Source: Escherichia coli (lineage in GTDB: Bacteria; Pseudomonadota; Gammaproteobacteria; Enterobacterales; Enterobacteriaceae). Taken from it: DNA of 64,000 nt. The DNA is taken from the NCBI RefSeq assembly GCF_013315695.1, contig NZ_CP054353.1; one strand, 5' to 3'. Below are positions 8,428 to 16,228 of this stretch, piece by piece. The notes below the pieces were generated by a model that was not told the origin of the DNA, did not search any database, and was given only the letters and a program-made list of their open reading frames with translations. The position numbers were made by a program, and so were the translations under genes. Within the stretch, counting starts at the first letter, position 1. Each line of letters begins with the position of its first letter.

Positions 8428-8482
8428 CGATGCCTGACACGTCTTATCAGGCTACAACCGTGTCGCATCCGACAAGGCATCA
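8428..8482. repeat. REP-like palindromic element in narU-narZ intergenic region
   Basis: gcctgacacgtcttatcaggctac and inverted partner read in sequence. Confidence 0.45.
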
Positions 8483-8516
8483 GATCCCAATTCATTCCTG
8501 GAGCAGGAGTTATGTC

Positions 8517-11500
8517 ATGAGTAAACTTTTGGATCGCTTTCGCTACTTCAAACAAAAGGGCGAAACCTTTGCCGATGGTCACGGACAGGTGATGCATAGC
8601 AACCGCGACTGGGAGGACAGCTATCGCCAGCGTTGGCAGTTCGACAAAATCGTGCGTTCCACCCACGGTGTTAACTGTACAGGCTCCTGTAGCTGGAAAA
8701 TCTACGTTAAAAATGGTCTGGTGACCTGGGAAATCCAACAGACCGACTACCCGCGCACTCGCCCTGACCTGCCCAATCATGAACCTCGCGGCTGCCCGCG
8801 TGGCGCAAGTTACTCCTGGTATCTCTACAGCGCTAACCGTCTGAAATACCCGCTCATTCGTAAACGACTGATTGAACTGTGGCGCGAAGCCCTCAAGCAA
8901 CACAGCGATCCGGTACTGGCGTGGGCATCGATTATGAACGATCCGCAAAAGTGCCTGAGCTACAAACAAGTGCGTGGGCGCGGCGGGTTTATCCGCTCCA
9001 ACTGGCAGGAGCTAAACCAGCTGATTGCCGCTGCTAACGTCTGGACCATCAAAACTTACGGCCCGGATCGCGTTGCCGGTTTCTCGCCGATCCCGGCGAT
9101 GTCGATGGTTTCTTACGCCGCCGGAACACGTTATCTGTCGCTGTTAGGTGGCACCTGTTTAAGCTTCTACGACTGGTATTGCGACCTGCCGCCCGCCTCG
9201 CCGATGACCTGGGGCGAGCAAACCGACGTACCGGAATCTGCCGACTGGTATAACTCCAGTTACATCATCGCCTGGGGGTCTAACGTACCGCAGACACGTA
9301 CGCCGGACGCCCATTTCTTTACCGAAGTACGCTACAAAGGCACTAAAACCATCGCTATTACCCCTGACTACTCTGAAGTGGCCAAATTGTGCGACCAGTG
9401 GCTGGCACCGAAACAAGGCACTGATAGTGCCCTGGCAATGGCAATGGGCCATGTCATTTTAAAAGAGTTTCATCTCGATAATCCCAGCGATTATTTTATC
9501 AACTACTGCCGCCGCTACAGCGACATGCCGATGCTGGTAATGCTGGAACCTCGCGACGACGGCAGCTACGTACCCGGGCGCATGATCCGCGCGTCTGACC
9601 TGGTAGATGGACTGGGCGAAAGCAACAATCCGCAGTGGAAAACCGTGGCGGTTAATACCGCAGGTGAACTGGTGGTGCCGAACGGTTCGATTGGTTTTCG
9701 CTGGGGAGAAAAAGGCAAATGGAATCTGGAATCCATTGCCGCCGGTACGGAAACCGAATTGTCGTTAACTCTGCTCGGTCAACATGATGCCGTTGCAGGC
9801 GTGGCCTTCCCCTACTTTGGCGGCATTGAAAATCCGCATTTTCGCCGCGTAAAACACAATCCGGTCCTGGTGCGCCAATTGCCCGTTAAAAACCTGACAT
9901 TAGCCGATGGCAACACCTGTCCGGTCGTCAGCGTTTATGATTTGGTACTGGCGAATTATGGCCTCGATCGCGGGCTGGAAGATGAAAACAGCGCGAAAGA
10001 TTACGCTGAAATCAAACCGTACACCCCAGCCTGGGGTGAGCAAATTACCGGCGTGCCGCGCCAGTATATTGAAACCATCGCCCGTGAATTTGCCGATACC
10101 GCCCATAAAACGCATGGGCGTTCGATGATTATTCTCGGTGCTGGCGTCAACCATTGGTATCACATGGACATGAACTACCGCGGGATGATCAATATGCTGA
10201 TCTTCTGCGGTTGTGTCGGGCAAAGCGGTGGCGGCTGGGCACACTATGTCGGTCAGGAAAAACTGCGCCCGCAAACCGGCTGGCTGCCTCTGGCTTTTGC
10301 GCTCGACTGGAACCGACCACCGCGCCAGATGAACAGCACCTCGTTTTTCTACAATCATTCCAGCCAATGGCGCTATGAAAAAGTCTCTGCTCAGGAGTTA
10401 CTTTCACCGCTTGCCGATGCCAGTAAGTACAGCGGTCATCTGATTGATTTCAACGTTCGCGCCGAACGTATGGGCTGGCTACCTTCTGCGCCGCAGTTGG
10501 GGCGTAATCCGCTCGGGATTAAAGCTGAAGCCGACAAGGCCGGATTATCTCCCACAGAATTCACCACCCAGGCGCTGAAATCGGGCGATTTACGTATGGC
10601 CTGCGAACAACCCGATAGCGGCAGCAATCATCCGCGTAATTTGTTTGTCTGGCGTTCTAACCTGCTTGGTTCCTCCGGCAAAGGCCACGAGTATATGCAG
10701 AAGTATCTGCTGGGGACCGAAAGCGGGATTCAGGGCGAGGAACTCGGTGCCAGCGACGGGATCAAACCGGAAGAAGTCGAGTGGCAAACTGCGGCGATTG
10801 AAGGCAAGCTCGACCTGCTGGTGACGCTCGACTTCCGCATGTCCAGTACCTGCCTGTTCTCCGATATCGTTCTGCCCACCGCCACCTGGTACGAAAAAGA
10901 CGATATGAACACCTCGGATATGCATCCGTTTATTCATCCGCTTTCTGCGGCGGTCGATCCGGCGTGGGAATCACGCAGCGACTGGGAAATCTACAAAGGT
11001 ATCGCCAAAGCATTTTCGCAACTGTGCGTGGGTCATCTTGGCAAAGAAACCGACGTGGTATTACAACCACTGCTGCATGACTCTCCGGCAGAACTCTCCC
11101 AGCCGTGTGAAGTGCTCGACTGGCGCAAAGGCGAATGCGATCTAATCCCGGGTAAAACCGCGCCCAATATTGTGGCGGTGGAACGCGACTACCCTGCTAC
11201 CTATGAACGCTTTACCTCGCTCGGGCCATTGATGGACAAACTTGGCAACGGCGGTAAAGGGATTTCGTGGAATACCCAGGATGAAATCGATTTCCTCGGC
11301 AAACTCAACTACACCAAGCGTGAAGGCCCGGCACAGGGGCGTCCGCTGATTGACACCGCCATTGACGCATCAGAAGTGATTCTGGCTCTTGCACCGGAAA
11401 CCAACGGTCATGTTGCAGTCAAAGCGTGGCAGGCGCTGGGCGAGATCACCGGACGCGAACATACCCATCTGGCGCTGCACAAAGAGGACGAGAAGATTCG

Positions 11501-15249: not shown

Positions 15250-16143
15250 ATGAAACCGCAGGTGTACCACGTCGATGCTTTTACCTCTCAACCGTTTCGC
15301 GGCAATTCTGCCGGTGTTGTTTTCCCCGCCGATAATCTCAGCGAAGCGCAAATGCAGCTTATCGCCCGCGAATTAGGTCATTCCGAAACTGCTTTTCTGC
15401 TGCACAGCGACGACAGCGATGTGCGCATCCGCTACTTTACGCCAACGGTTGAAGTGCCGATTTGTGGTCACGCGACAGTAGCTGCGCACTATGTACGTGC
15501 AAAGGTGTTAGATTTAGGAAATTGCACGGTCTGGCAAACGTCACTGGCAGGAAAACACCGCGTGACTATCGAAAAGCATAACGATGATTATCGTATTTCG
15601 CTGGAACAAGGTACGCCGGGCTTTGAGCCACCGCTGGAAGGTGAAACACGAGCGGCGATTATCAACGCGCTTCATCTCACTGAAGACGATATTTTGCCTG
15701 GCTTGCCAATTCAGGTGGCAACCACAGGACACTCAAAAGTGATGATCCCACTGAAACCAGAAGTGGATATCGACGCCCTTTCGCCTGATCTTGCTGCGCT
15801 GACCGCTATCAGCAAACAGATTGGCTGCAATGGTTTCTTCCCGTTCCAGATCCGCCCAGGCAAAAACGAAACCGACGGTCGTATGTTCTCGCCTGCCATT
15901 GGTATTGTGGAAGATCCGGTGACCGGCAATGCCAATGGCCCGATGGGTGCATGGTTAGTACATCACAACGTATTGCCACACGATGGCAACGTGTTGCGTG
16001 TTAAAGGCCATCAGGGGCGCGCATTAGGGCGTGACGGCGTGATTGAAGTGACGGTGACAATTCGTGATAACCAACCGGAGAAAGTCACCATTTCTGGCAC
16101 GGCGGTGATTTTGTTTCATGCCGAATGGGCAATTGAACTCTGA
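15250..16143 (+). CDS. yddE: PhzF-family isomerase-like protein
   Basis: 297 aa, synteny downstream of narV. Confidence 0.85.
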   Translation: MKPQVYHVDAFTSQPFRGNSAGVVFPADNLSEAQMQLIARELGHSETAFLLHSDDSDVRIRYFTPTVEVPICGHATVAAHYVRAKVLDLGNCTVWQTSLAGKHRVTIEKHNDDYRISLEQGTPGFEPPLEGETRAAIINALHLTEDDILPGLPIQVATTGHSKVMIPLKPEVDIDALSPDLAALTAISKQIGCNGFFPFQIRPGKNETDGRMFSPAIGIVEDPVTGNANGPMGAWLVHHNVLPHDGNVLRVKGHQGRALGRDGVIEVTVTIRDNQPEKVTISGTAVILFHAEWAIEL

Positions 16144-16150
16144 AACCGTT

Positions 16151-16228
16151 GCCTGATGCGCTTCGCTTATCAGGCCTACAACCGGACTAATGTATGCCGG
16201 ATTAGGCATTTACGCCACATCCGGCAAC
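16151..16228. repeat. BIME (two inverted REP units) between yddE and nhoA
   Basis: gcctgatgcgcttcgcttatcaggcctac and tgccggattaggcatttacgccacatccggca read in sequence. Confidence 0.65.

Follow-up and report, generated by a model that had tools for sequence, protein, structure and literature searches.

REP and BIME repeats have been known since the 1980s and are abundant in E. coli. The family of enterobacteria comprises y, z1, and z2 REPs, found in BIME-1, BIME-2, and atypical BIMEs. BIME-1 is characterized by a long conserved L linker with an IHF site between y and z1, 34 nt long in the K-12 yaaX-yaaA element, and BIME-2 by y and z2 units that are separated by a short linker and typically arranged in tandem. 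The tetranucleotide GTAG is needed for binding and cleavage by TnpA(REP), REPs are targeted by the IS110-family element IS621 through its bridge-RNA recombinase, and the nucleoid-associated RNA naRNA4 (RF02564) is transcribed from REP325. Closest to the yddE-nhoA element analyzed here is the K-12 nhoA-yddE BIME (NC_000913.3, approximately 1534882-1534958), an ortholog with the same flanking genes and the same order of y unit, linker, and z unit.

The analysis concerns a 64,000-nt stretch of DNA (the window) whose source is E. coli and whose gene coordinates agree with annotation. An earlier note had placed REP/BIME elements in its narU-narZ and yddE-nhoA spacers, and the four gene names it used agree with the annotation of identical and K-12 records. 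REP/BIME elements are not a new finding, and the yddE-nhoA locus has its K-12 orthologue. The yddE-nhoA spacer (site 2, unit at 16150-16226) contains a well-formed REP pair, that is, a BIME, and the narU-narZ spacer (site 1, unit at 8431-8475) only an eroded REP stump. Site 2 is in all probability an ordinary single-unit BIME and site 1 the stump of a former y+z BIME that is most likely inert.

For a formal scan, a covariance model was built from 17 independent (unrelated) K-12 REPs; in the REP family as a whole, pairing holds in 96.9% of pair cells, and both sides are changed in 34 of them, a level reached by none of 500 shuffles. Published REP sequences were also used in a Smith-Waterman scan, with 100 dinucleotide shuffles of the whole window as the null, and copy number was obtained by sequence matching in 5383 records, with the count per genome for site 2 being a lower bound. 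Three identical Smith-Waterman matches with a score of 37 correspond to the insB gene of three IS1 copies, so scores of about 30-37 are not proof of REP identity, and the narU-narZ unit was for that reason judged on comparative evidence.

The yddE-nhoA spacer and its borders contain the following features.

16141-16143, plus strand: yddE stop codon TGA, 7 nt before the REP stem
16150-16179, plus strand (GTAG-first form on the minus strand): short y-type REP, 28/29 to the published GCCTGATGCGCTACGCTTATCAGGCCTAC
16169-16179, plus strand: exact copy, by sequence match, of the natural IS621 target 11-mer ATCAGGCCTAC
16180-16191, no strand, read from the sequence: linker AACCGGACTAAT (12 nt), joining the heads of the two REPs
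16192-16226, minus strand: z-type REP, 31/35 to the published TGCCGGATGCGGCGTAAACGCCTTATCCGGCCTAC
16239-16241, minus strand: nhoA stop codon, 12 nt from the z REP stem

Both units are extragenic, flanked by the stop codons of yddE and nhoA, two convergent genes, and they stand head to head across the linker with y on the plus strand and z on the minus strand, the arrangement of a generic BIME. The palindrome GCCTGATGCGCTTCGCTTATCAGGCCTAC, previously given as 16151-16181, was found at 16151-16179, with its inverted partner at 16192-16226. Smith-Waterman scores of 53 and 50 for the two units (best of 100 shuffles, 28-31) bear out the assignment of this spacer to the REP/BIME family, as does the covariance model, a formal scan of the kind that the earlier note had proposed, with 46.7 bits and E 1.2e-12 for the y unit and 31.2 bits and E 1.3e-7 for the z unit. 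Sequences matching the pair occur in at least 40 places per genome among the 5383 records.

In the y unit, 16151-16157 pairs with 16169-16175 (GCCTGAT/ATCAGGC), the canonical internal mismatch is kept with GC facing TT, an inner GC/GC pairing follows, and CTAC stands at 16176-16179; palindrome, mismatch, and GTAG/CTAC foot are all present. The z unit departs further from its consensus, with a plus-strand head of GTAT, not GTAG, at 16192-16195 and three more substitutions. K-12 likewise has GTAT at this otherwise conserved tetranucleotide, and E. albertii and E. whittamii have GTAG. Folded as RNA, the y unit forms a hairpin of -14.1 kcal/mol (z-score -4.2 against shuffles) and the z unit one of -21.7 kcal/mol (z-score -5.3).

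Site 2 resembles the REP/BIME family in length, GC/TT-mismatch palindrome, CTAC/GTAG, extragenic location, multiple copies, and inverted pairing, and differs from it in being a single unit instead of a tandem array, in having a short y of 30 nt, and in the GTAT head of its z unit. Its 12-nt linker, without an L-type or IHF motif at 16180-16191, separates it from BIME-1. It may or may not be a BIME-2: y and z units joined by a short linker are present, in single copy only, and the z unit may be of either subtype, z1 or z2. With the naRNA4 model the z unit gives a partial alignment (E 0.047), as is expected of a REP-derived RNA; its 29.3 bits are far below the gathering threshold, 59.5, and the alignment fills just a fraction of the model's 77 nt, so that membership of naRNA4 was rejected.

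The flanks of the K-12 nhoA-yddE BIME are identical to those of the window over about 80 nt, whereas eight substitutions fall within the BIME itself, also of about 80 nt. K-12 has a consensus z unit (51.9 bits) and a degraded y unit (22.2 bits; hairpin -9.5 kcal/mol, z-score -1.4), whereas in the window y, at 46.7 bits, is at consensus and z, at 31.2 bits, is degraded. Rescue of K-12 y pairing by G-U wobble, a sign of RNA-level selection, was considered and rejected, as the hairpin is merely weakened in folds of both strands. At this position a z unit is shared by genomes from Citrobacter to Escherichia, and the y unit of the spacer occurs throughout Escherichia. The window's own allele of the spacer is rare: only 95 records match it at 99% identity or more.

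Strain ECE313 carries IS621 in the yddE-nhoA spacer, exactly at the CT core of ATCAGGC/CT/AC. The window lacks IS621 in this spacer, unlike ECE313, and carries the exact natural target of the element. The insertion in ECE313 is in the nhoA-adjacent REP, which there has the y-like arm GGCCTGAT; in the window the nhoA-adjacent REP reads GTATGCCGGAT, which is not an IS621 target.

The likely roles of the yddE-nhoA BIME are those of 3'-end mRNA hairpins near the stop codons and of an IS621 target. A stable REP hairpin would close each mRNA, starting 7 nt past the stop codon for yddE and 12 nt past it for nhoA, and because the hairpins follow the stop codons so closely, their action is most likely exerted at the RNA level. 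They would block 3'-to-5' exonucleases, and in this way set and stabilize the 3' ends of mRNAs in a spacer without an intrinsic terminator. They may also slow terminating ribosomes and lower output from the upstream gene, since both lie less than 15 nt from a stop codon, the distance given by the 15-nt rule (Liang et al. 2015, as summarized in PMC12306157). At the DNA level, the REP-specific IS621 could insert into the unit, and TnpA(REP) may act on the y unit, which has GTAG and the mismatch in its stem. Given how much weaker the K-12 y unit is than that of the window, these hairpins may be under only weak selection.

A BIME in this position could instead act mainly on DNA, as a BIME-2-type site of gyrase binding and cleavage or of nucleoid organization. 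Positive supercoils accumulate between convergent genes such as yddE and nhoA, the pairing of y and z across a short linker is the composition of BIME-2, and a published gyrase map shows an excess of cleavage sites in BIME-2 and a preference of gyrase for y units. The BIME-2s reported as rich in gyrase are, however, multi-copy tandem arrays (sucB-sucC, tldD-yhdP) and site 2 is a single unit, its y is a short one where tandem arrays in K-12 have the long y, and nhoA, yddE, and narU are absent from those supplements of the map that were searched. A mainly DNA-level function is accordingly regarded as unlikely, although not negligibly so.

The narU-narZ spacer contains far less of a REP, and its features are these.

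8394-8516, plus strand: stretch of 41 codons by which the mechanical narZ ORF is spuriously extended at its N-terminus, overlapping the last 29 nt of narU
8420-8422, plus strand: narU stop codon TAA, from the sequence and the MS 21-1 annotation
8431-8455, plus strand: internally deleted y-type REP remnant, TGCCTGA / CACGTCTTATCAGG-CTAC, in the ...CTAC-3' orientation
8456-8475, plus strand: AACCG linker and distal-arm remnant of a lost z-type REP (TGTCGCATCCGACAA), identified from the orthologous full z
8517-8519, plus strand: actual narZ start codon, preceded at 8500-8509 by the Shine-Dalgarno sequence GGAGCAGGAG

Within the y remnant, which is 25 nt long, a 6-bp stem is left (8432-8437 with 8447-8452; -8.2 kcal/mol as an RNA hairpin), 11-12 nt are gone internally, and one C of GGCCTAC is lost. 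This 1-nt deletion is the reason that a mismatch-only pattern scan misses the unit. The covariance model gives 11.8 bits and E 0.25, ranked under the chance match in IS1 insB, and the Smith-Waterman score of 30 is just over the 95th percentile of the null (28) and under its maximum (35). By BLAST the unit is single-copy, with a median of one place per genome. It lacks several features by which a REP is defined, namely a significant match to the model, a length of 30-40 nt, an extended imperfect palindrome, and multiple copies, and taken on its own it is statistically indistinguishable from a chance match. What had been called a related canonical unit is thus not canonical and scans poorly, which is the outcome that the earlier note had named as refuting it, yet its REP ancestry stands, and is evident only by comparison with other Escherichia species.

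At the orthologous place, E. whittamii has a full y REP of 36 nt (L010:490-526, 29.4 bits), and full z REPs are found in E. albertii (L009:3191-3225, 40.7 bits) and in E. coli E69 (L012:3191-3225, 35 bits). The latter two have a full GTAGGTCGGATAAGGC...GCATCCGACAA where the window keeps the distal arm. With full REPs in the orthologous spacers of relatives and conserved flanks, the unit in the window is therefore a remnant. The spacer would once have held a y+z BIME, of which only the distal arm of z and an internally deleted y are left. The K-12 BIME between ybcF (arcC) and purK has the same layout of y REP and AACCG(G)TG(C/T)CGCATCCG(G/A)CAA, sharing 50 nt at 86% identity and the order of y and AACCGGTGCCGCATCCGGCAA; that BIME has a complete y REP of 37 nt with more REPs after it, whereas narU-narZ has lost the 11-12 nt of its y interior.

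E. coli carries two independently deleted alleles of this spacer: that of the window, in approximately 34% of genomes, and that of K-12, which is shorter by 13 nt. A query with a synthetic 'ancestral' spacer recovered no allele fuller than that of the window in approximately 5400 E. coli genomes.

The remnant had also been credited with explaining why the automated narZ ORF begins too early. The 41-codon extension is indeed present, with an ORF start at 8394 against an annotated start at 8517 in K-12 and in the 100%-identical MS 21-1. Its frame, which is not that of narU, runs without a stop codon from an ATG within narU through all 94 nt of the spacer, and the extension arises because the ORF lister picks the first start codon after a stop (the longest-ORF rule). 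That rule, and not the repeat, is the cause, and the explanation holds only in part: owing to the 13-nt indel, the TGA in GCCTGA is read in frame only in the K-12 allele, where it truncates the extension, and not in the window allele. The remnant matters to the extension solely through whether its TGA is in frame.

Could the narU-narZ unit still work as an intercistronic RNA element, stabilizing narU or regulating translation of narZ? It lies 9 nt past the narU stop codon between co-directional genes, and the flanks of the spacer, GATCGATGCCTG and AAGGCATCAGATCCC, which do not vary among four Escherichia species, are able to form an outer helix with each other. Against this, the REP-type hairpin is weak, the fold of the whole spacer is unremarkable (z-score -1.9 in the window and -2.4 in K-12), and two thirds of E. 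coli genomes have an allele without the hairpin. The interior has moreover been swapped freely among species, spacers in Citrobacter are 43 to 152 nt long, some with REPs and some without, and the invariant flanks offer no substitutions in which covariation could be tested. A working element of this type is quite improbable. A candidate hairpin over the narZ Shine-Dalgarno sequence was rejected, as it is not conserved in Citrobacter.

A related proposal assigns function to the outer helix GAUCGAUGCCU/AGGCAUCAGAUC itself, as a conserved RNA or DNA element that would set narU/narZ stoichiometry or processing and into which REPs would insert repeatedly. Each arm has a GATC Dam site, and the arms are invariant across Escherichia species as the REPs vary in the loop; we consider this proposal very improbable.

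Resemblance of the narU-narZ unit to REPs by pure chance would fit the covariance E value, the rank under IS1 insB, and the single copy found by BLAST. It would leave unexplained the full-length REPs at exactly this position in orthologous spacers with identical flanks, and the 50-nt match, linker included, to a bona fide BIME has E 2e-4 against 28 Gb. Coincidence is extremely doubtful. An inert remnant of a y+z BIME is the most likely reading of site 1.

That the yddE-nhoA hairpins are intrinsic (Rho-independent) terminators merely resembling REPs is hardly credible: they are GC-rich, stable, and directly 3' of two stop codons, yet neither is followed by a T-run on either strand, a terminator scan found no terminator-like site in this spacer or in narU-narZ, and the family match has E 1e-12 with at least 40 places per genome.

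For annotation, the 41-codon extension of narZ should be rejected and the hairpins of these spacers should not be labeled as terminators or sRNAs. As members of a known repeat family, the two sites matter little biologically. They are of use as examples of REP turnover, with the narU-narZ BIME existing as a full y, a full z, or two stumps according to lineage, and with the y and z units of yddE-nhoA decaying alternately in different E. coli lineages. Positions 16169-16179 are in addition an exact natural target of the bridge recombinase of IS621, and a natural IS621 insertion is documented in the same spacer of another strain.

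In this Escherichia coli window, the yddE-nhoA spacer holds a textbook BIME with an orthologue in K-12 (NC_000913.3). REPs are imperfect palindromes of 30-40 nt whose stem contains a two-base mismatch and whose foot carries a conserved GTAG, divided into types y, z1, and z2; most are arranged in inverse-orientation pairs as BIMEs, including BIME-1, with a long, IHF-binding linker, and BIME-2, with a short linker and usually in tandem (PMC3333891). Three reference REPs are printed in PMC11208160 (TGCCGGATGCGGCGTAAACGCCTTATCCGGCCTAC, GCCTGATGCGCTACGCTTATCAGGCCTACG, and GCCTGATGCGACGCTGGCGCGTCTTATCAGGCCTACG), and two older consensus sequences are given in PMC12306157. 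For formal scanning, a covariance model was built from 17 REPs at unrelated K-12 loci and run on the window with filters off, and 100 dinucleotide-shuffled versions of the 64-kb window supplied the null for Smith-Waterman local alignment. The gene map was drawn from K-12 and from the annotation of an identical record, strain MS 21-1, which has 100% identity to the window across both regions.

Features of the window
Ends at 8422: narU (annotation)
8431-8475: site 1, REP-like unit in the narU-narZ spacer
8517-12257: narZ (annotation)
15250-16143, + strand: yddE (annotation)
16150-16179, + strand: site 2, y unit
16192-16226, - strand: site 2, z unit
16239-17084, - strand: nhoA (annotation)
18979-19746 (+), 27803-28570 (-), 32025-32792 (+): three IS1 copies, mutually 100% identical
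40599-40632, + strand: single z-type REP, TGCCGGATACGGCGTAACGCCTTACCCGGCCGAC, 33.9 bits, E 1.7e-8

The three IS1 copies are absent from the otherwise identical MS 21-1 annotation and therefore represent extra insertions in the source strain. The REP at 40599-40632, a third good one outside the two sites, begins 9 nt after the stop of a 76-aa ORF (40359-40589, yncJ in the MS 21-1 annotation) that is convergent with an ORF at 40681-42684.

Because yddE lies on the + strand and nhoA on the - strand, the two genes converge on site 2, where the spacer reads TGA-aaccgt-TGCCTGATGCGCTTCGCTTATCAGGCCTAC-aaccggactaat-GTATGCCGGATTAGGCATTTACGCCACATCCGGCA-acctgacataaa-TTA. The y unit shares 28 of 29 positions with the published short y REP and keeps the canonical GC/TT mismatch, and the z unit shares 31 of 35 with the published z REP. 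Their local alignment scores were 53 and 50, respectively, against a best of 28-31 anywhere in the shuffled windows (n=100), and the covariance model returned 46.7 bits (E 1.2e-12) for y and 31.2 bits (E 1.3e-7) for z. These results bear out the earlier note, which had placed a REP/BIME element in this spacer. As RNA, the hairpins fold at -14.1 kcal/mol (y, z-score -4.2) and -21.7 kcal/mol (z, z-score -5.3), and no shuffle folded as well as either. The only Rfam match to site 2 was the REP-derived naRNA4, below threshold, and a terminator scan of the spacer found no terminator-like site. The linker between the REPs is 12 nt and, unlike that of the K-12 yaaX-yaaA BIME-1, has no L/IHF motif; site 2 is therefore a single-unit BIME whose composition is either BIME-2-like or atypical. 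Used as a query, the 83-nt element matched at least 40 places per genome in 5383 records; IAI39, CE10, and ST648-type strains carry it with 100% identity.

Independent evidence that site 2 is a REP element comes from a REP-specific insertion sequence. In one genome, E. coli ECE313, the match to site 2 ends at the linker, and an IS621 transposase gene is annotated within the yddE-nhoA spacer (IS110 family, bridge-RNA recombinase; locus L004, 9294-10573). Read on the - strand, the junctions are TTATCAGGC-CT-[IS]-CT-ACATTAG, and IS621 interrupts the nhoA-side REP precisely at the CT core in ATCAGGC|CT|AC (ATCAGGCCTAC), its natural REP target (PMC11208160). The window has one exact copy of this 11-mer, at 16169-16179.

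A YddE search of genome contigs gave 27 syntenic loci, among which the nhoA-side z unit was found from Citrobacter through Escherichia and the yddE-side y unit in all Escherichia loci and in no Citrobacter; the Salmonella diarizonae locus had neither. In 35 distinct REPs drawn from these loci, pairing holds in 96.9% of pair cells, and 34 pair cells differ on both sides, which none of 500 shuffles equalled; the alignment was fitted to the model and so leans towards structure. Site 2 is unusually polymorphic within E. coli, with eight differences from K-12 inside ~80 nt and none in the flanks. In K-12, the z unit is at consensus (51.9 bits) and the y unit degraded (22.2 bits, -9.5 kcal/mol), whereas the window shows the opposite pattern; in strain OkiPb01680, the y unit has lost 11 nt.

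Site 1 is a decayed remnant rather than a canonical REP. The sequence of its spacer is TAA-gagatcga-TGCCTGACACGTCTTATCAGGCTAC-aaccg-TGTCGCATCCGACAA-ggcatcag.... What is left of a long y REP is GCCTGA, the six outermost bases of its left arm, together with 17 of the 19 right-arm bases; ~11-12 bases of the interior are gone, as is one C from GGCCTAC. The remaining hairpin has 6 bp (-8.2 kcal/mol). Its Smith-Waterman score of 30 compares with a window-wide null whose 95th percentile is 28 and maximum 35, and its covariance score of 11.8 bits (E 0.25) ranks seventh in the window, below three 12.8-bit matches that all lie inside insB of IS1 copies (e.g., 19466-19495) and are themselves sub-threshold for the REP model. 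By BLAST, the unit is single-copy. The earlier note had called it a REP-like unit and named a formal REP scan as the test; as a canonical REP it fails that scan, and its REP ancestry stands through comparison with relatives.

Despite the weak formal scores, orthologous spacers, whose flanks are invariant, show that site 1 is REP-derived. E. whittamii has a full-length 36-nt y REP in the corresponding position (L010, 490-526; 29.4 bits, -21 kcal/mol), and a complete z REP, GTAGGTCGGATAAGGC...GCATCCGACAA, occupies it in E. albertii (40.7 bits) and E. coli E69 (35 bits); E. coli otherwise keeps only ...GTCGCATCCGACAA of the z REP. The E. whittamii unit is a perfect 13-bp palindrome, GCCTGGTAAGACG...CGTCTTATCAGGC, with no canonical GC/TT mismatch in its stem, a feature reported as necessary for TnpA(REP). 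A 50-nt stretch of site 1 that takes in the linker also has 86% identity to the K-12 ybcF-purK BIME, which has a full y REP followed by AACCGGTGCCGCATCCGGCAA. Two alleles occur in E. coli, the window type (1864 of 5414 genomes) and a K-12 type 13 nt shorter. K-12 retains GCCTGATG, ancestral left-arm sequence absent from the window, and the window retains CGTCTTATCAGG, right-arm sequence absent from K-12; the two forms therefore arose by separate deletions from a more complete ancestor. A search of ~5400 complete E. coli genomes gave no fuller allele. In Citrobacter, the length of the spacer varies between 43 and 152 nt and its number of REPs between none and two. The spacer is a site of recurrent REP gain and loss.

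In Escherichia 'coli' SCPM-O-B-8794 (L011, ~3014-3165), the same spacer holds a ~150-nt BIME-1-like insert in which an L-type linker (aaaatcgtgcaaattcaata) joins a partial z unit to a short y REP; inverted tgatgacaaa/tttgtcatca motifs mark its ends, with AGATC direct repeats on either side. These repeats resemble a target-site duplication and hint at insertion of a whole BIME. In the window, the REP remnant is bracketed by a 7-11 bp inverted repeat, GATCGATGCCT with AGGCATCAGATC, whose arms each carry a GATC (Dam) site (8425-8428 and 8483-8486). These arms do not vary among the Escherichia spacers examined, while the interior is indel-variable.

The mechanical narZ ORF begins at ATG 8394, within narU, 41 codons before the true ATG at 8517, and this extension is an artefact of a rule that opens an ORF at the earliest start codon following a stop. 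In the K-12 allele, the narZ frame is closed by the TGA of GCCTGATG; in the window, that TGA is out of frame because 13 extra bases shift it. The earlier note's attribution of the extension to site 1 is thus right as to the 41 codons, but the link is indirect and the ORF rule is the cause. The narZ gene is preceded by ATGTCATGA (8497-8519), a mini-ORF of two codons with a stop that overlaps the narZ ATG; it is conserved in the spacers of both Escherichia and Citrobacter. The narZ Shine-Dalgarno sequence is covered by a small hairpin (UCCUG-GAG-CAGGA) in Escherichia only.

For site 2, an RNA-level role is the most likely: in a spacer without an intrinsic terminator, the hairpins would block exonucleases at the 3′ ends of both convergent mRNAs. 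They lie 7 nt (yddE) and 12 nt (nhoA) from the stop codons, and site 2 therefore falls in the class (<16 nt from the stop) reported to reduce upstream-gene translation, according to Liang et al. 2015 as summarised in PMC12306157. At the DNA level, site 2 is a landing site for IS621, and it may also bind gyrase or serve as a TnpA(REP) substrate; TnpA(REP) requires GTAG (PMC3333891), kept in the y unit only. Site 1 is most likely inert. Both sites belong to the known REP/BIME family and represent nothing new in kind.
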